A stretch of 35,344 bases of DNA from IMG/VR virus record IMGVR_UViG_3300045988_151333; one strand, given 5' to 3'. Positions 1,747 to 30,784 of the stretch are shown piece after piece. The notes beneath the pieces were generated by a model. It worked only from the letters and a program-made list of their open reading frames with translations, was not told the origin of the DNA and ran no database searches. The stretch's first letter is position 1. Every line of letters starts with the position of its first letter. The DNA is from a virus. Position numbers and translations under genes: made by a program.

Positions 1747-3423
1747 ATGAAAGTTTATAAAACAAAAGACGCAATACTGCGCCACGCTCCGAATCTTGAC
1801 GCCGAAGACGAAAAGCTGCTTAACAGCGAGTGCTTCACGCCGTATATATTTTACAAAGATGACAGAAAAAATAAAAGGCGTGAGTGCTACTGCACCGCCT
1901 GCGGAGCGGAGTTTAACGAGGACTTTGTTAAACGAACAATGACCCAGGACGACAGAAGATTTTTAGATGCGGAGCATAACCAAATCGTGAAATGTCCGAA
2001 GTGCGGCAGACGAGTTATGCTGAAAAACGAGGGCCGCGTTCGAGACTGCAAGAGCCTTGAAGAATGGCGCCGTTTTGTGGCTGTTAAACCTGTGGGGCGA
2101 AACACTGTATATCTGATATGTGGGTGGGCGAATAAGGACTACACCGGGCGATACATTAAAACAAAACCGATATATGACATTTCGGCGATATATTACTTAA
2201 CACCCGGGTATGTCCGAGTTTTCAAAAATGCAAATCCGAATTGGTATGCAAAATATTGGTATGCAAAATATTGGTATGAACCAAAAAGCATTATTGAGCC
2301 GTTTATTAAAACGTTCAGTTACAACAATGCTTATGCTGAAAACAGGGGGTACAGATGGATAGGCTTTGACCGACTGAAAAAGACCTTTTTAAAATATGCG
2401 CCGATTGAGAATTTTTCTGTCGCGTATGAAAAATATTTCTACAACAAGCCATACGTCTGTGTCGGCGAAGTGCCCGAGGTGAAGTTCTTCGCTTATTCGG
2501 CGATATATCCGAATGTTGAAAAGTTATTAAAGCTCGATCTTGGAGAATTCGTATGCAGCCTTGTAGACGGCAAGCCGATGAAGAGATTTATAAACTGGAA
2601 TGCTCCGACCGTGCAGAGCATGTTCAATATGACGCGCGGCGAATTTAAACGTTTTCGTGAACAATTTTACAATTTTGACGATTTTAAGGTTTATAAAATC
2701 CTGAAATCGGCAAATCCGAACATTCAATATGCTGTGGCTGTTGACCTTTGCAAAGCTTATAGCGGCGAAGCGGCTGAAAAAATAGCGTGGACGGTAAAAA
2801 AACAAAAACTCAGCTTGACAAAAACATTGAACTATCTCATAAAGGCCGAAAGAAAGAATTTCAAAAGCCAATATGAAAAAAGCACGTCATTCAGCCGCAG
2901 CACAACTGCGATATGGTGGAAAGACTACATATATTTTGCCGAAAAACTTAAATATGACCTTACAAGAAGTGATGTCATATATCCGAAAAACTTAAAACAA
3001 GCACATGACAATGCTTCGGGCGCGTTTGTGATAAAAAAGAACCAAGACGCCTATGCAAAATATCAGAAAAGATATGCCGCCCTCGAAAAGCGATATGCCT
3101 TTTCTAACGGTGAATATCAAATCGTAATTCCAATAGGCGTAAATGACATAATCGAAGAAGGCAAGATTCTTTCCCATTGCGTAGGCGGATATGCCGAACG
3201 CCATATGAAGGGAAAAACTACGATTTTGTTTATGAGAAAATGCAACGCGCCTGCGGAGCGGCTTGTCACAATCGAAGTCAAGGACGATAGAATTTGTCAA
3301 AATTACGGATTCCACGACCGGCAAGTCTCGCCCGCCGAACAAAAATTCATAAATACATGGATTGAATGGGTGCGTGCCGGTTCTCACAAATTGGAAAACA
3401 AAAAAACTGCCGGAGCGGCTTAA
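1747..3423 (+). CDS. PcfJ-like domain protein with an N-terminal Zn-ribbon
   Basis: 558 aa. CxxC...CxxC near the N-terminus. C-terminal LSHCVGGYAERHMKGKTTILFMRK is typical of the PcfJ-like family. Confidence 0.6.
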   Translation: MKVYKTKDAILRHAPNLDAEDEKLLNSECFTPYIFYKDDRKNKRRECYCTACGAEFNEDFVKRTMTQDDRRFLDAEHNQIVKCPKCGRRVMLKNEGRVRDCKSLEEWRRFVAVKPVGRNTVYLICGWANKDYTGRYIKTKPIYDISAIYYLTPGYVRVFKNANPNWYAKYWYAKYWYEPKSIIEPFIKTFSYNNAYAENRGYRWIGFDRLKKTFLKYAPIENFSVAYEKYFYNKPYVCVGEVPEVKFFAYSAIYPNVEKLLKLDLGEFVCSLVDGKPMKRFINWNAPTVQSMFNMTRGEFKRFREQFYNFDDFKVYKILKSANPNIQYAVAVDLCKAYSGEAAEKIAWTVKKQKLSLTKTLNYLIKAERKNFKSQYEKSTSFSRSTTAIWWKDYIYFAEKLKYDLTRSDVIYPKNLKQAHDNASGAFVIKKNQDAYAKYQKRYAALEKRYAFSNGEYQIVIPIGVNDIIEEGKILSHCVGGYAERHMKGKTTILFMRKCNAPAERLVTIEVKDDRICQNYGFHDRQVSPAEQKFINTWIEWVRAGSHKLENKKTAGAA

Positions 3424-5761: not shown

Positions 5762-6407
5762 TAGCGAGAGAAATTATTTTGTTTTTAGTGAAAACAACTG
5801 TAAATTTGAAAGCTTAACAAAAGAGCAAATTTTATCGGCAATTGAGCAGGCGGTTGACTCCGGAAAAATAAAGGATGTTGACACAGGATTTGTGACGAAA
5901 ATTAAAGAGCAAAACAAAAACGCCGGCTTAATGTTTTGGGTTGGCAATCAAGCCGAATATAATGCGCTTGAAAGCAAAAAAAACAACTGTCTTTATATAA
6001 TTACCGATGACAGAAAAAACGAAAGTATAGATCTTATTTGGAACAATCTGGGGCAGCTCAACGACATAGCAGACGGGGCAATGCAATGCGTCTACGAAAG
6101 TAATGACTCGATTCCATTTGATGTTAATTTCACAGGCGACGGACAATTTAAAGAATTCGACCTCTCCTTCGGCGATTATAAATACGATCCGACAAGAGAT
6201 GTTGTTGTTGCTGAGATTTCGAACAAGCAAACAATACCGCTTGTCGAACATTGCTTTTTTGCGCTAACACTTAAGAAAAGGGGATATAATAACGGCACTT
6301 ACGGCATGAAACTTGGTATTTGCATCGTAAGTGGGCTTGGCAATTCACAGTGTCCGCATCTGCACGTATCGTACAAACTTCTCAGAAAATCATACGGGGT
6401 GTCATAA
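5745..6407 (+). CDS. Tail-fibre-associated-like protein
   Basis: LTKEQILSAIEQAV..GKIKDVDTGFVTKIKEQN...MFWVGNQAEYNAL...LYIITDD is a motif seen in Gram-positive phage fibre proteins. Confidence 0.45.
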   Translation: MKKMADSERNYFVFSENNCKFESLTKEQILSAIEQAVDSGKIKDVDTGFVTKIKEQNKNAGLMFWVGNQAEYNALESKKNNCLYIITDDRKNESIDLIWNNLGQLNDIADGAMQCVYESNDSIPFDVNFTGDGQFKEFDLSFGDYKYDPTRDVVVAEISNKQTIPLVEHCFFALTLKKRGYNNGTYGMKLGICIVSGLGNSQCPHLHVSYKLLRKSYGVS

Positions 6408-7036
6408 TGGCTTACATAAACGGAAAAGAGATACTGTTATCAGCTCAACTAACCGGGCTTGTAAACATCGACAGCGAAATATCGGACACAAGCGAAAACC
6501 CGGTGCAGAACAAGGCTGTTAAAGCTTATGCCGACGGCTTGTCAAAGTACAGAATTATAAGCGATGTGACTATAACTGAAGACATCGGTACATATTCAAT
6601 ATCGCAAGATAGCAACGGCAATGCGTTCGATTTGCGGAAAATGTTTTTCTTATTTATCGGAAAATTTAACGCGGCTTTAAGCAATAAAGCGTTGTCACTG
6701 CGAACAAACGGCGGGTATCACTACCTTGCATATATGGGTTACACACTTGCTGAAGATCACGAGTGCGCTTTTTGGCTTGAAGCAGAAAACTTTTTGCGGA
6801 CGAATGAAAACAGCGGAATTAAAAGCACATATTCGGCTACATTGCTTCAACAATTCACAAATGGACTTGCTCAAGGCTTGAGCGGAAATAATGTTGCTGT
6901 AAATTCAGACATCTCGTTCCAAAAAAGACACCCAAATTACCCGCACCCAATGAGCGAGATTAAATTCGGCGTCCACGACAGTACTATAAAAATGAAATCG
7001 GGAAGTCGTTTTATACTTCTCGGCATTGATTATTGA
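6407..7036 (+). CDS. Hypothetical structural/fibre-like protein
   Basis: ATG 6407 overlaps the upstream TAA. The N-terminal SENPVQNKAVKAY motif is common in fibre proteins. The 6320 start in the ORF track is an overlapping extension. Confidence 0.45.
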   Translation: MAYINGKEILLSAQLTGLVNIDSEISDTSENPVQNKAVKAYADGLSKYRIISDVTITEDIGTYSISQDSNGNAFDLRKMFFLFIGKFNAALSNKALSLRTNGGYHYLAYMGYTLAEDHECAFWLEAENFLRTNENSGIKSTYSATLLQQFTNGLAQGLSGNNVAVNSDISFQKRHPNYPHPMSEIKFGVHDSTIKMKSGSRFILLGIDY

Positions 7037-26697: not shown

Positions 26698-26735
26698 TGG
26701 AGCGGGTGATGGGAATCGAACCCACTATCTTACAT
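26698..26735 (-). other. attP core: 3' end of a tRNA (T-arm, acceptor 3' strand, discriminator U, CCA), probably tRNA-Gly; not a complete gene
   Basis: The minus strand reads GTGGGTTCGATTCCCATCACCCGCTCCA. No 5' acceptor strand (GCGGGTG) or D-arm within 100 nt. Confidence 0.7.
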
Positions 26736-26876: not shown

Positions 26877-28052
26877 TCAAAAAGCGGAGCGGATATCCGA
26901 AGCCGTTTTTGCAGTTGACTGCAAAAACTTGTTGAATTTATCAATATCGCTTGATTCTTTTTCCTTAGAAAGATGTGTGTAAATTGAAAGAGTTGTCTTA
27001 ATATCAGAATGTCCGAGTAATTCTTTTGCGGTTAAAACGTCTACGCCGGCATCGTACAGCATTGTTGCGTAAGTGTGGCGCAGGCAATGCGGCGTGAATG
27101 TGTCTATCGTCAAAGGCAGCGTTTTTCTACGGTCGGCAGCTGTGCCGATAAAGCACCCGTATTTCTTGTTAAGGCACAACATATAACTATGCCAAAGTTT
27201 ATCCCAAGCCGAATTTGACATATAACCGCCCACGGTGTTCGGGAAAACGAGCGTTGATTTTTTAGGCATATGTCGCATATAATCGGCAAGAATATCAGGC
27301 ATTTGTATTATGCGATTTCCGGCAGCGGTTTTTGTGGATTTTACGGCTTTAGTTGGCGCGCAATAACTTTTATTTATTGAAATAGTTTTACTATCAAAAT
27401 TCACATCCGACCAAAGAAGCGCGGTAAGCTCCCCGCGGCGAAGCCCTGCAAATAACATTATCATAGCCGCCGGTTGTGCTCGGTGCGGCGTGTCGAGAAT
27501 CCATGCCCGCTGTTCGGCGGTAAGTGCGGAGCGGCTCTTTGAAGGTGTGCCCGCCGGGACGTTCAAAAGTTCTTCAACCGGCGAGCGATCAATAATTCTG
27601 TTAGCTGCACAATATTTAAAAAACTGCTTGATAATCGATGTATATTCGATTAACGTTTTACGCGATGTAGGCTTACCCGAATACGGATTGCAGGCGGCGA
27701 ACGCATCAAGGACGGCTTGAACATCACAAAGCCGAATTTTTGAAATATCAAACTCGCCAAAATGCTGTACGAAGTGATCGAGCCTCTGACTAATGCACTT
27801 ATACCAGCTGGCGGATACGGTGTTTTTTTTCGAAATTAAAAATCGGTTTGCCCAAAAAGCAAAAGTGCGGTTTTCGGAAATCAAATCAACGCCACGATGT
27901 AGCTGTGCACGAAGCTCCGCCGCCTTTTGGTCGGCTTCTTTTTGAGTTTTGCCGTAAACCGATTTATATTTGCGTTTGCCGTCAACGCTGCCGACGTAAA
28001 CTTGAACGACTATTCGGCCGTCGGCGCGGCGGGGGTTTGTTTTCTTCGGCAT
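26877..28052 (-). CDS. int: Tyrosine integrase
   Basis: 391 aa. HCLRHTYATMLYDAG...LLGHSDIKTTLSIYTH. Adjacent to the tRNA-fragment attP. Confidence 0.92.
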   Translation of the reverse strand: MPKKTNPRRADGRIVVQVYVGSVDGKRKYKSVYGKTQKEADQKAAELRAQLHRGVDLISENRTFAFWANRFLISKKNTVSASWYKCISQRLDHFVQHFGEFDISKIRLCDVQAVLDAFAACNPYSGKPTSRKTLIEYTSIIKQFFKYCAANRIIDRSPVEELLNVPAGTPSKSRSALTAEQRAWILDTPHRAQPAAMIMLFAGLRRGELTALLWSDVNFDSKTISINKSYCAPTKAVKSTKTAAGNRIIQMPDILADYMRHMPKKSTLVFPNTVGGYMSNSAWDKLWHSYMLCLNKKYGCFIGTAADRRKTLPLTIDTFTPHCLRHTYATMLYDAGVDVLTAKELLGHSDIKTTLSIYTHLSKEKESSDIDKFNKFLQSTAKTASDIRSAF

Positions 28053-28054
28053 AT

Positions 28055-28204
28055 TTAATCACTTCCTTTTGTTTTTTGATTTACAAATTGAATAATCTCT
28101 TGTTTACCCTCTTCGCTTGCCGTTCTGTAAAAAGCGAGGAGGGCTTTTTCTTGTTCAGTTAATGAATTTGCAGTAGAATAGCGGGCATAAATTACGCCGT
28201 TCAT
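28055..28204 (-). CDS. 49-aa hypothetical protein; the N-terminus resembles the serine-recombinase YxRxST motif
   Basis: MNGVIYARYSTANS... The stop lies 2 nt before the int start. RBS-like GGCGGTG. Below the ORF-track cutoff. Confidence 0.35.
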   Translation of the reverse strand: MNGVIYARYSTANSLTEQEKALLAFYRTASEEGKQEIIQFVNQKTKGSD

Positions 28205-28245
28205 ATTTCACCGCCTTTCAGCCGTTCGATTCGTCGAGCGGCTTT

Positions 28246-29160
28246 TTATTTCACAAGATACACCGTAATTTGCGCTTTTGTTTTTCCGTCGTCATTTTCG
28301 CCGCAAGCGTCGAGAATACCAACGATCTTTTTATGCTCGTTTTCGTTTATGAAGTTTGCGGCAGACTTCGGCAATTCGCCGACTTCTTCGTAAATGTCAT
28401 TAAAAACGACGAAGCAATCGTCGGCGTCTTCGCATTCGATAGTTAGCACGTCGCCTTCGTCGCAATTTAACAAATTATCTTCACGCGTTGTATATTCATC
28501 AATTTTCTTTTTGATTTTCGAGAGGGAAAAACGCTTCGATTCGAATATATCGAGCGGCTTATAAAAGCCGATCTTGTATGTGGCTTTATTATTGCTGACC
28601 GAATATTTGTTGAGATAACCGTCCACGCGCCAGCCGCGCTTTGTGTAATCGTTGAACATATCTTGAACCGTTCCGCGATAGATATATCCGATTTTTGCCC
28701 CGTTAAGATACACGGCGACCGCTTTTTCGTCGTGGGGGTTTTCGGGTTCTTGCTTGAACGTCACCGCCTTTCCACCGTTACCGGGGATATGGTCGAACGC
28801 CCCGTCAAACAAACACAAAGATTCTTCATATTCATAGCAAAGCGCCGCACCGTCTGTAACGTCTTCAAATAAATTGTAATTCTTTTCGCCGTCCGGAACG
28901 CTTTTCTTTTCGGCCGCAGGAGCGGGCGCAACATTCGCGGCGGGAACGATCGCAGGAGCAGGAGCGGACACAGTATTTTTTGTGGCGGGCGCTGGGTTCT
29001 TTTTATCAAGATAAACAAGCGCCGCGCCGCCAGCAATTAAAAGGACGCTACCACCAGCCAACGCCGCTTTATCATCTGTATTTCCAAACAAGCCGAAAAG
29101 ACCGACAACGCCGAACGTGATTAAAACAATACCGATTATAAATTTCTTTCCCTTTTTCAT
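28246..29160 (-). CDS. Membrane-anchored HIRAN-domain protein (2 N-terminal TM segments, Pro/Ala linker, HIRAN)
   Basis: AAGGAG RBS 8 nt upstream of ATG 29160. TM segments FIIGIVLITFGVVGLFGLFG and AALAGGSVLLIAGGAALVYL. HIRAN motif FKQEPENPHDEKAVAVYLNGAKIGYI. Confidence 0.65.
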   Translation of the reverse strand: MKKGKKFIIGIVLITFGVVGLFGLFGNTDDKAALAGGSVLLIAGGAALVYLDKKNPAPATKNTVSAPAPAIVPAANVAPAPAAEKKSVPDGEKNYNLFEDVTDGAALCYEYEESLCLFDGAFDHIPGNGGKAVTFKQEPENPHDEKAVAVYLNGAKIGYIYRGTVQDMFNDYTKRGWRVDGYLNKYSVSNNKATYKIGFYKPLDIFESKRFSLSKIKKKIDEYTTREDNLLNCDEGDVLTIECEDADDCFVVFNDIYEEVGELPKSAANFINENEHKKIVGILDACGENDDGKTKAQITVYLVK

Positions 29161-29232
29161 AGTGGAAGCTCCTTTATGTGTAATAGATCGTAAAAATATA
29201 TACGTTCCCGCTGGGAGCGGGCAAAACAAACG

Positions 29233-29634
29233 TTATTTTGATTCGGTATGTACTGCACCGAAAATCTTTTCCCCTTCCGCAACAACGGAAGCGGCGTCGG
29301 CGGCAATGTTCGCGCCCACCTGAACCCCTAAAAGAGTATCGACCGCGCCTTGCATATCAGGCCGCGCGCGATACGCGAGAACACCCGCCTTTTCCTTTTC
29401 GGAAAGCGCGAACGGCGCTTCGGAAGATTCGTCGCGGAATTCCGCAAGAATATCACCTACATTATATATATCGCATAATTGCATTAAGATTTCGGCGTCA
29501 GGTTGACCGCGGTTATTTTCCCACGCATTGACCGTTTTTCCGCTTTTACCTACCATAGCGCCGACTTGATCGGCGGTCAATCCGCTTTGTTCTCTTAAAC
29601 GTTTTAACGCTTTTGCTATTGATTCACGCGACAT
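29233..29634 (-). CDS. XRE-family HTH protein
   Basis: IAKALKRLREQSGLTADQVGAMVGKSGKTVNAWENNRGQPD. The start is ATG 29634 or GTG 29643. Confidence 0.7.
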   Translation of the reverse strand: MSRESIAKALKRLREQSGLTADQVGAMVGKSGKTVNAWENNRGQPDAEILMQLCDIYNVGDILAEFRDESSEAPFALSEKEKAGVLAYRARPDMQGAVDTLLGVQVGANIAADAASVVAEGEKIFGAVHTESK

Positions 29635-29738
29635 TCTACACACCCCATTCTTTATTGATTGTTAACCCGTTTTCTTTTTTTCTCTGTTTTATACGGTTGT
29701 GAATTTCCATTTAATCACCCATTTTCCGCAGTAAAAAT

Positions 29739-30380
29739 TCAAAACTTGGCGCGAAGTTCAACGACCTTGCCTATAATGCTTACGGGAAGCAATTCAATAT
29801 CGTCGTTACTGTAAGTTTTAACTTCGTAAGCCGGATTCGACGGAACGAGGTTTATTCCGCCGTTGAATTTCTGCACTTTTTTTATTGTTGCTTCGTCGCC
29901 GTTAACAAGAACTATCGCAACCTCGCCGCTCTCGACATCCGGCTGTTTGCGAACAATAACAACATCACCCTCTTTTATGCGTGGCTCCATTGAATCGCCC
30001 TTGATTTGTAATGCGAAAAAATCACCTTGTCGTGCCATATCTTCGCTGATTTCTTCATAATCTAATATATTCTCGACGGCCTCCATCGGAAGCCCAGCGC
30101 GAACGGTACCGAGAACGGGAATTTGTAAAGATTTTGAAAGCTTCTTTGATTCCCTGCTGCAATCATATCCCATGAGCCAAAGTGGATTAACGTGAAAAAT
30201 ATTAGCCAATGAATAAACTGTTGGGAGCTTTGGAAGCATGTGCCCGTTCATATAACGACTTATGGTCGCAGCAGACATCCCGAGCCTTTTGGATATAGAA
30301 TATGTATTTTCGCCAAATTCGGACATTAAATCAGATAAACGCTGCGGGAATGTTTCTTTTTTTATAATTGTTTTTTCCAT
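29739..30380 (-). CDS. CI/LexA-like repressor (N-terminal HTH plus S24 peptidase)
   Basis: N-terminal HTH region. GDSMEP supplies the catalytic Ser and ATIKKV the Lys. Divergent from the cro-like gene. Confidence 0.88.
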   Translation of the reverse strand: MEKTIIKKETFPQRLSDLMSEFGENTYSISKRLGMSAATISRYMNGHMLPKLPTVYSLANIFHVNPLWLMGYDCSRESKKLSKSLQIPVLGTVRAGLPMEAVENILDYEEISEDMARQGDFFALQIKGDSMEPRIKEGDVVIVRKQPDVESGEVAIVLVNGDEATIKKVQKFNGGINLVPSNPAYEVKTYSNDDIELLPVSIIGKVVELRAKF

Positions 30381-30541
30381 TTAAAATCACCTTACCTTAT
30401 GGTAATATTATAACGAATTGTTGCAAAAGTCAACAACAAAAAACAGAAAAAGCAAAAAAATGTTGCAAAAAGCATTGACAAGTTATTTAAACAGTGATAA
30501 CATAAATATTGCGAAACGCAATAAAAGGGAGGCGAACGAAG
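30381..30541. promoter_or_regulatory. Genetic switch region with divergent promoters and operator-like repeats
   Basis: Plus strand: TTGACA (30475-80), 17-nt spacer, TGaTAACAT extended -10. Minus strand: TATAAT at 30412-30407. TGTTGCAAAA occurs twice (30419, 30461). Palindrome ATTGCGAAACGCAAT at 30508-22. Confidence 0.6.
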
Positions 30542-30766
30542 ATGAAAAGAAAATATCCTGAGCTTAAGAAAATAAAAGGGAGGATAACCGAAATGGGTGA
30601 AACTTATAGGTCTATAAGCGAAAAAACGGGAATACCGCTTAATTCTTTATCAAATAAGATAAACGGAAAATCGCTTTTTGACATTCTCGAAGTTTCGAAA
30701 ATATGCGCGGTATTGGATATTCCAGCAAATGAAATTCCGATTTTTTTTGAAGTAAATGTTGCATAA
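30542..30766 (+). CDS. Cro-like XRE HTH protein
   Basis: GGGAGG RBS. YRSISEKTGIPLNSLSNKINGK. The 30509 start in the ORF track lies upstream of the RBS. Confidence 0.7.
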   Translation: MKRKYPELKKIKGRITEMGETYRSISEKTGIPLNSLSNKINGKSLFDILEVSKICAVLDIPANEIPIFFEVNVA

Positions 30767-30784
30767 CGCAACAAAGGAGCTTTT

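Follow-up and report, generated by a model that had tools for sequence, protein, structure and literature searches.

A predicted membrane-tethered protein with two HIRAN-fold domains in the lysogeny block of a gut Clostridia siphovirus: a candidate trap for the ends of incoming DNA

The IMG/VR virus record IMGVR_UViG_3300045988_151333, whose 35,344 nucleotides (nt) form the whole stretch of DNA analysed here and are called the window, is the complete genome of a temperate phage of siphovirus type, with genes for TerL, a portal protein, a capsid protein of HK97 type and a Sipho_Gp37 tail protein; it is a phage of gut Clostridia. The lysogeny block lies on the minus strand, where an S24 repressor gene (30380-29739) is followed by an XRE-family gene (29634-29233), the gene of a 304-amino-acid (aa) HIRAN protein (29160-28246), a 49-aa open reading frame (ORF; 28204-28055) and the integrase gene (28052-26877). 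From repressor to integrase the intergenic gaps measure 104, 72, 41 and 2 nt, and a preliminary description of this DNA, which had placed these ORFs on the minus strand with gaps of 100 nt or less, was essentially right. The 304-aa protein, an accessory ('moron') gene product of the phage, is our main subject, and we tentatively propose a role for it in superinfection exclusion. It is composed of two transmembrane (TM) helices, a Pro/Ala linker and two HIRAN-fold domains, arranged as follows:

28999-29160, minus strand: N-terminal membrane anchor with an MKKGKK tail, TM1 at aa 5-25, a short acidic loop and TM2 at aa 31-54; from the helices of an AlphaFold2 (AF2) model and positive-inside analysis.
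28879-28998, minus strand: Pro/Ala-rich linker, aa 55-94, predicted to be disordered; predicted local distance difference test (pLDDT) score below 50 at aa 58-86.
28549-28878, minus strand: HIRAN domain 1 (HIRAN-1), aa 95-204, with the 3'-end pocket motif kept; from the Pfam HIRAN profile, Foldseek and a chain of alignments.
28249-28548, minus strand: HIRAN domain 2 (HIRAN-2), aa 205-304, lacking the EPxNxxD motif; from an AF2 model of the domain alone and its PDB matches.

All the motifs quoted for this protein in the preliminary description (MKKGKK, APAPAIVPAANVAPAPAA, EPENPHDEKAVAVYLNGAKIGYI and GDVLTIECEDADDCFVVFNDIYEEVGELP) are present. The HIRAN assignment made there is supported by the Pfam HIRAN profile (PF08797), which matches aa 128-184 with 33.8 bits against a gathering cut-off of 24.7 (E=3e-8), and by the AF2 model (pLDDT 86.5, built with 35 homologs), for which Foldseek retrieved from the PDB the HIRAN domain of HLTF and the bacterial protein lp_0118 with probability 1.0 and TMt 0.58-0.73. 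The model shows beta-rich domains at about aa 105-202 and 207-303. When PDB sequences were searched with a profile, lp_0118 was the sole match, and HLTF was reached only via a pneumococcal protein. The second, degenerate copy that had been suggested as a possibility was borne out at the level of fold: modelled alone, domain 2 gave a pLDDT of 87, and we hold the copy to be real at this level because its ten best PDB matches were all HIRAN structures (TM-score 0.54-0.67, E about 1e-3). No Pfam profile match was obtained for domain 2, and an hhalign comparison of domain 1 with domain 2 was not significant (E=0.097). By its modelled structure, domain 2 is a degenerate HIRAN at fold level, with no detectable sequence similarity to domain 1.

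The window motif EPENPHDEKAV aligns with DPNNPYDKNAI of HLTF through a chain of lp_0118 and proteins of the phages Javan584 and IPP45, the residue correspondences between HIRAN-1 and HLTF being Y109=Y72, N141=N91, H143=Y93 and D144=D94. D94 of HLTF contacts the 3'-OH. Y72 and Y93 border a dinucleotide cavity (PMC4666394). Among 35 family members, N141, D144 and Y109 are each kept in 34, and position 143 is Y in 21 and H in 10. HIRAN-1 is strongly predicted to retain the 3'-end pocket of HLTF. When the gene was compared with that of locus L001 (L0nn being the locus labels and P0nnn the protein labels of this analysis), the ratio of nonsynonymous to synonymous substitution rates (dN/dS) was 0.20 for HIRAN-1, 0.11 for HIRAN-2, 0.39 for the linker and 0.16 for the TM region. 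As judged from these ratios, both HIRAN domains are under purifying selection, strongly so in HIRAN-2, the most constrained part of the protein, and the linker is more relaxed. The net charge is -4 for HIRAN-1 and -10 for HIRAN-2.

For membrane topology, 127 family members were scanned for hydrophobic segments and oriented by the positive-inside rule, which predicts cytoplasmic C-terminal domains in all 87 two-TM members, in 9 of the 10 three-TM members and in all three four-TM members, that is in 99 of 100 multi-TM proteins; together with the TM helices of the AF2 model, this supports the earlier proposal of a membrane-tethered protein with cytoplasm-facing domains. The anchor itself varies, being exchanged among homologs for two plain helices, a TM2 domain (PF05154), 1, 3 or 4 helices, or none, with 13 of the 127 lacking any detectable TM segment. 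Since the type of anchor is interchangeable across the family, the comparison points to a passive tether. The linker likewise varies in length and sequence.

A profile search covering 1.84 billion representative sequences returned 1515 matches at E<=1e-3, 649 at E<=1e-10 and 173 at E<=1e-30 (clusters at 50% identity). Most of the top matches listed are proteins of about 250-350 aa that cover almost the full length of the profile, and the near-identical cluster holds 253 member sequences. The named carriers are metagenome-assembled genomes (MAGs) of Oscillospiraceae, Acutalibacteraceae or 'Clostridia' from gut or rumen; a scan of genome contigs gave three MAG loci only, and BFVD holds a full-length relative annotated merely as 'HIRAN domain'. 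With tblastn, the 304-aa protein had no match at E<=1e-3 in 50,697 GenBank phages, only generic HIRAN cores appearing at E<=10, and no match in 72,556 plasmids. An NCBIfam search gave nothing useful.

About ten prophage lineages carry the gene, which follows a repressor-like helix-turn-helix (HTH) gene and adjoins the integrase or the end of the prophage, or else stands alone. The gene orders are:

L001-3: Cro-like gene (divergent), XRE, HIRAN, serine recombinase.
L009/10 and L012: repressor, HTH, HIRAN, tyrosine integrase.
L011 and L031/32: HTH, HIRAN, HicAB or a weak AbiQ-like gene, M78 peptidase (opposite strand), integrase.
L013, L014 and L022: HTH, HIRAN.
L028-30: repressor, TM-less HIRAN, then a lipoprotein (L028) or a TM-anchored paralog (L029/L030).
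L004-8: stand-alone HIRAN gene between the lysis cassette and an rve-type integrase.

The placement between repressor and integrase, noted at the outset, holds in the window and recurs in many of these lineages. Around the HIRAN gene the type of integrase is swapped, being serine in L001 and tyrosine in the window. Among its neighbours in this cargo slot are HicA/HicB modules and a 169-aa protein with a weak AbiQ match (E=0.006), found among L011:7309-7818, L028:8574-9194 and L031:6146-6781.

Several observations made in these prophages are recorded here in their own right. L030:5001-6728, like L029, holds tandem paralogs, the TM-less P0083 and, after it, a copy with two TM helices that is 30% identical to the window protein (E=8e-19) and in which the HIRAN-1 pocket motif is degenerate; the pairing hints at possible hetero-oligomers. 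L023:7098-8522 encodes on the plus strand a 474-aa distant relative with N-terminal hydrophobic segments and 29% identity over aa 137-301; it lies ahead of a 1070-aa ORF, and two small ORFs that follow look toxin-antitoxin-like by eye. Prophages with a P0040-type HIRAN protein carry an RVT_1 reverse transcriptase gene between a BppU-type tail fibre gene and the lysis cassette (L004:9363-10430, L005, L006; L022:3637-4704), which might represent a diversity-generating retroelement. In the window, a 558-aa early-region protein (1747-3423) has a PcfJ-like domain (E=1.7e-35), and this domain recurs early in the unrelated HIRAN-carrying prophages L028-L031.

The features that surround the HIRAN gene in the window are:

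26698-26729, minus strand: end of the attP core, a tRNA 3' fragment; from the alignment to L026:6390-6600 and BLAST boundaries.
26877-28052, minus strand: tyrosine integrase (Phage_integrase 3.8e-23, Arm-DNA-bind_4), starting 2 nt past the stop of the scar ORF.
28055-28204, minus strand: 49-aa chimeric scar ORF; from BLASTP and DNA alignment to L001 and to an 80-aa ORF of L019.
28175-29655, minus strand: mosaic cassette comprising the XRE gene, the HIRAN gene, the intergenic hairpin with a ribosome-binding site (RBS) and the first 29 nt of a serine-recombinase gene; from blastn and DNA alignments.
28220-28243, no strand assigned: 10-bp GC-rich hairpin between the HIRAN gene and the 49-aa ORF, kept in L001-L003; from a scan and DNA alignment.
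29195-29224, minus strand: promoter-like site TTGCCC-18-TATATT over a small hairpin (29221-29207), then an RBS; from a promoter scan and DNA alignment.
29233-29634, minus strand: XRE-family HTH protein, 133 aa from its ATG, the ORF opening at GTG 29643 (HTH_3 3e-11).
29636-29710, minus strand: 24-codon stub ORF (MEIHNRIKQRKKENGLTINKEWGV, then a stop); from the sequence and comparison with L020.
29739-30380, minus strand: S24 repressor of LexA/CI type (Peptidase_S24 3e-30, HTH_3 1.5e-7), the first gene of the lysogeny operon.

Upstream of the S24 repressor, the promoter scan gave a promoter-like site at 30433-30405. The HIRAN gene has a strong RBS, AAAGGAG, which follows the promoter-like site at 29195-29224 in a region that is near-invariant between the window and L001. 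The hairpin at 29221-29207 is weak (fold z = -1.9) and, having also been missed by a first terminator/promoter scan, is unconvincing as a terminator after the XRE stop. The hairpin at 28220-28243 looks like a terminator of antisense transcripts through the integrase gene, because its T-run is on the plus strand only. At the far end of the block, the tRNA 3' fragment (…GGGTTCGATTCCCATCACCCGCTCCA) at 26729-26698 is the exact point at which identity with integrated prophage copies stops, from which we take the window to be the excised, circularly permuted form. The integrated copies, L025-L027, lie in bacterial chromosomes, including a 2.43-Mb contig of GCA_027494335.1, and HD-domain and ClpB-like host genes adjoin them. 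ARAGORN detected no complete tRNA in the window or beside the integrase in L016, L025 and L026.

The preliminary description had grouped the XRE gene and the 49-aa ORF with the HIRAN gene in the lysogeny operon, and a reading of the two as co-functional cargo did not stand. The window XRE protein shares 94% aa identity with that of L001 (dN/dS 0.09). In L001-L003 and in L016, a near-identical sister phage with the same arrangement, the XRE gene is divergent from a 66-aa Cro-like gene and is the sole repressor candidate; there it sits behind a perfect TTGACA-17-TATAAT promoter, which in the window is replaced by the S24 repressor module. By this comparison, the XRE gene is the CI-type repressor gene of the sister phages and, in the window, a second, promoter-less repressor gene. 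We also rejected XRE and HIRAN as a dedicated regulator-effector or toxin-antitoxin pair: the HTH proteins encoded upstream in diverged loci are only 19-24% identical to the window XRE, and at some loci no HTH gene of the same orientation adjoins the HIRAN gene. In distant HIRAN loci the homology of the upstream HTH genes to the window XRE does not extend beyond the HTH. Position 29710, given earlier as the start of the interval, is the ATG of the 24-codon stub ORF, which is in another frame, and not the start of the XRE gene.

The 49-aa ORF proved to be a chimera. Its codons 1-10 (28204-28175, MNGVIYARYS) are the start of a large serine recombinase gene, identity to L001 stopping after 29 nt, and codons 11-49 are the C-terminal tail of the HTH gene that precedes the tyrosine integrase in L019 (80-aa ORF, L019:9049-9291). 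Only the first ten codons match the large serine recombinase, and the ORF has no resolvase catalytic, recombinase or zinc-ribbon domain; this chimeric make-up rules it out as an excisionase or a small cargo gene. In metagenomes this HTH tail is fused in frame to many other N-termini (P0229-P0249), that of the window S24 repressor among them. The stub ORF is what is left of the 5' end of a 129-aa HTH gene, which L020 carries intact (ORF 6381-6770, starting MEIHNRIKQRKKENGL); the junction is at 29655. In L020:5684-7667 there are up to four tandem HTH repressor-like ORFs, one of them partial, with a common C-terminal tail, 'TEQEKALLAFYR…IIQF…'. These alignments indicate that recombination or deletion at repeated HTH-gene tails leaves in-frame stub and chimera ORFs.

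The breakpoints at 29655 and 28175-28188 are recurrent. The cassette that lies between them (28175-29655) is 88.8% identical at the nt level to the serine-recombinase phages L001-L003, and the immunity region at 29655-30784, with the S24 repressor and a DUF739 Cro-like gene, is swapped or absent among the 95-98% identical IMG/VR phages L015-L021. The locus is a clear example of the rebuilding of a lysogeny module, even if a defence role of the HIRAN protein should prove wrong, and its scar ORFs are of a kind that gene callers report as genes.

Taking into consideration the identity of the domains, the conservation of the pocket, the topology, the selection on the protein, the size of the family and its context in the lysogeny slot, we favour a defence function, to which we would give something short of an even chance: the protein would be made in the lysogen, seize incoming linear DNA by its free 3' ends at the membrane and so act in superinfection exclusion. 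The basic N-tail and the two TM helices would anchor it in the cytoplasmic membrane, and the flexible linker of about 35 residues would suspend the tandem HIRAN module at the inner membrane face. HIRAN-1 would then capture the free 3'-OH end of linear DNA emerging at the membrane, for example the genome of a superinfecting phage, and a genome whose end is tethered or capped would be unable to circularise, replicate or be expressed; the resident prophage, having no free ends, would be spared. HIRAN-2 may serve oligomerisation or the binding of a basic partner rather than DNA binding. An independent streptococcal family with TM helices and a HIRAN domain in the same slot is counted in support of the defence function.

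Several points weigh against this proposal. The soluble part of the protein is acidic, which is unusual for a DNA binder, and the members lacking an anchor suggest that it is dispensable in some of them, so that membrane proximity may be inessential. Transcription of the HIRAN gene with the repressor in the lysogen is deduced from gene order and promoter-like sites. Known Gram-positive superinfection-exclusion (Sie) proteins such as Ltp act outside the membrane. Searches of Pfam, PHROG and PADLOC gave no match to a known Sie or defence family, the PHROG matches being HIRAN-like groups of unknown function. Finally, for thaL, a pneumococcal prophage gene of the TM-HIRAN type that was named in 2025, no functional test is reported (PMC12637031).

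The same pocket could serve a sensor rather than a trap. A tethered HIRAN protein that senses 3' ends, single-stranded DNA (ssDNA) or short oligonucleotides arising in damage, competence or degradation might tune prophage induction, burst timing or maintenance and not block other phages. The cavity of the HLTF HIRAN domain fits just a dinucleotide (PMC4666394), HIRAN genes of bacteria are found in clusters with those for dinucleotide-specific DNases and HipA kinases (PMC11706625), and the same-slot pneumococcal genes szaL and spaL modulate prophage activation upon competence and DprA signals (PMC12637031); the predicted co-transcription of the HIRAN gene with repressors would fit as well. We nevertheless consider this function unlikely, because the protein has no output or effector domain, the loci compared share no conserved partner gene, and it is hard to see what a membrane tether would contribute to the sensing of damage in the chromosome.

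The acidity of both domains raises the question of whether DNA is the ligand at all. The HIRAN folds might be re-used for something other than a nucleic acid, such as a basic phage or host protein at the membrane, which would make the analogy with DNA ends misleading. That HIRAN-2 lacks the pocket motif and is still the most constrained part would be in keeping with this, as would the family-specific invariant motifs KIGFY and EIGELPKSA, which are not canonical HIRAN residues; the pocket residues of HIRAN-1, kept in 31-34 of 35 diverse members, are hard to explain by any ligand other than a nucleotide 3' end, and we regard this explanation as quite unlikely.

Placed at the cytoplasmic membrane face, as the domains are predicted to be, they might instead capture the 3' end of ssDNA leaving the ComEC channel and shield the prophage from deletion by recombination with imported DNA. 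Transforming ssDNA enters Gram-positive bacteria 3' end first. According to one study, selection acts on prophages to suppress their curing by transformation (PMC12637031). The lysogen of phiRMV8, which carries thaL, was nonetheless picked as a model since its cells are transformable (PMC12637031). Competence is also not established for the Oscillospirales/Clostridia hosts, and such an anti-transformation function appears very unlikely to us. Equally improbable is abortive infection (Abi), in which end binding by HIRAN would lead to oligomerisation of the TM helices, membrane depolarisation and death of the infected cell: the coupling of a sensor to TM helices is seen in many single-protein Abi and defence effectors, purifying selection acts on the TM region among close relatives (dN/dS 0.16) and the slot also houses toxin-antitoxin and Abi-like cargo, but the freely exchanged anchors (1-4 TM helices, a TM2 domain or none) suit a passive tether better than a specific pore.

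If the DNA-end trap proves true, it would be a new mechanistic class of superinfection exclusion, acting on DNA ends at the cytoplasmic membrane face, and would provide a first function for bacterial and phage HIRAN domains. With the family common in prophages of human and animal gut Clostridia and an analogue in streptococcal pathogens, it could shape the phage susceptibility of microbiomes and the host ranges relevant to phage therapy.

Compared with known systems, the window protein has the fold of the HIRAN domains of HLTF/Rad5 (PDB 4s0n, 4xzg, 5bnh) and of lp_0118 (3k2y), with probability 1.0 and TM-scores of 0.6-0.73, and HIRAN-1 has in common with them the pocket motif N-x-(Y/H)-D and the upstream Tyr. 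Unlike HLTF/Rad5, it has no SNF2 or RING domain; it has a membrane anchor, a tandem copy and an acidic surface, and it is encoded in a prophage lysogeny operon. The lactococcal gene sie2009 and ltp of the S. thermophilus phage TP-J34 occupy the repressor-integrase interval of Gram-positive siphoviruses, and the window gene resembles them in this slot, in predicted expression in the lysogen and in membrane association. Ltp is an extracellular lipoprotein, whereas the functional domains of the window protein are predicted to be cytoplasmic and of the DNA-end-binding type. The sole PADLOC match was to PDC-M03B, through a generic HIRAN core (E=6e-5 over about 32 residues); PDC-M03B belongs to a system of two genes, in which it is the HIRAN protein that accompanies a HipA-domain kinase (PMC13245101, PMC11706625). 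This candidate system, defence-related by prediction, includes a bacterial HIRAN protein, as does the window, but its HipA-like kinase has no counterpart in the window operon and flanks or in the homologous loci examined.

The closest parallel comes from streptococcal prophages. The preliminary description knew of no described system with this architecture, a statement that no longer holds, as pneumococcal prophages have a repressor, a TM-HIRAN gene and an integrase (thaL; IPP45). In S. pneumoniae phage IPP45 an S24 repressor, a 304-aa TM-HIRAN protein and an integrase are encoded, and in S. suis phage Javan584 an ImmA-like gene, a TM-HIRAN gene and an integrase gene; the comparison with ThaL rests on these IPP45 and Javan584 proteins. 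Like the window protein, they have two TM helices and then a cytoplasmic C-terminal HIRAN domain with EPxNP(H/Y)D, and their genes likewise lie between repressor and integrase in the same orientation, in IPP45 also downstream of an S24-type repressor. The streptococcal proteins differ in having a basic N-terminal module of about 100 aa and a single HIRAN domain, against the minimal anchor, Pro/Ala linker and second degenerate HIRAN of the window family. Full-length homology between the two was not found (tblastn against phages at E<=1e-3; hhalign, HIRAN core only), and because only the HIRAN core, some 62 columns, is alignable (hhalign probability 95.7%), the two are by sequence comparison separate families, analogous and not orthologous.

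The basic N-terminal module of the streptococcal proteins (about 60-100 aa) is itself common to many Gram-positive phage proteins (L024:3024-3320; L033:2501-2800), its carriers being phages of Streptococcus, Enterococcus (phiEf11), Lactococcus, Lactobacillus (Lj928), Clostridium and Fusobacterium. In Javan584, IPP45 and Lactococcus phage 98203 it is encoded within the lysogeny module, several other matches being far from the record start, and this N-terminal module looks like a common N-terminus of cargo proteins with exchangeable C-terminal domains.

Taken across both families, membrane-tethered 3'-end recognition would be a widespread, unrecognised prophage means to tell incoming linear DNA from the prophage's own end-less genome, evolved at least twice, in the tandem-HIRAN proteins of gut Clostridia and in streptococcal ThaL, and keeping superinfecting genomes from circularising by trapping their ends; we put this generalisation forward as doubtful. 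The architecture had already been noticed and named in another phage group, and the window family, with its tandem HIRAN module on an exchangeable anchor, is a barely described kind of it.

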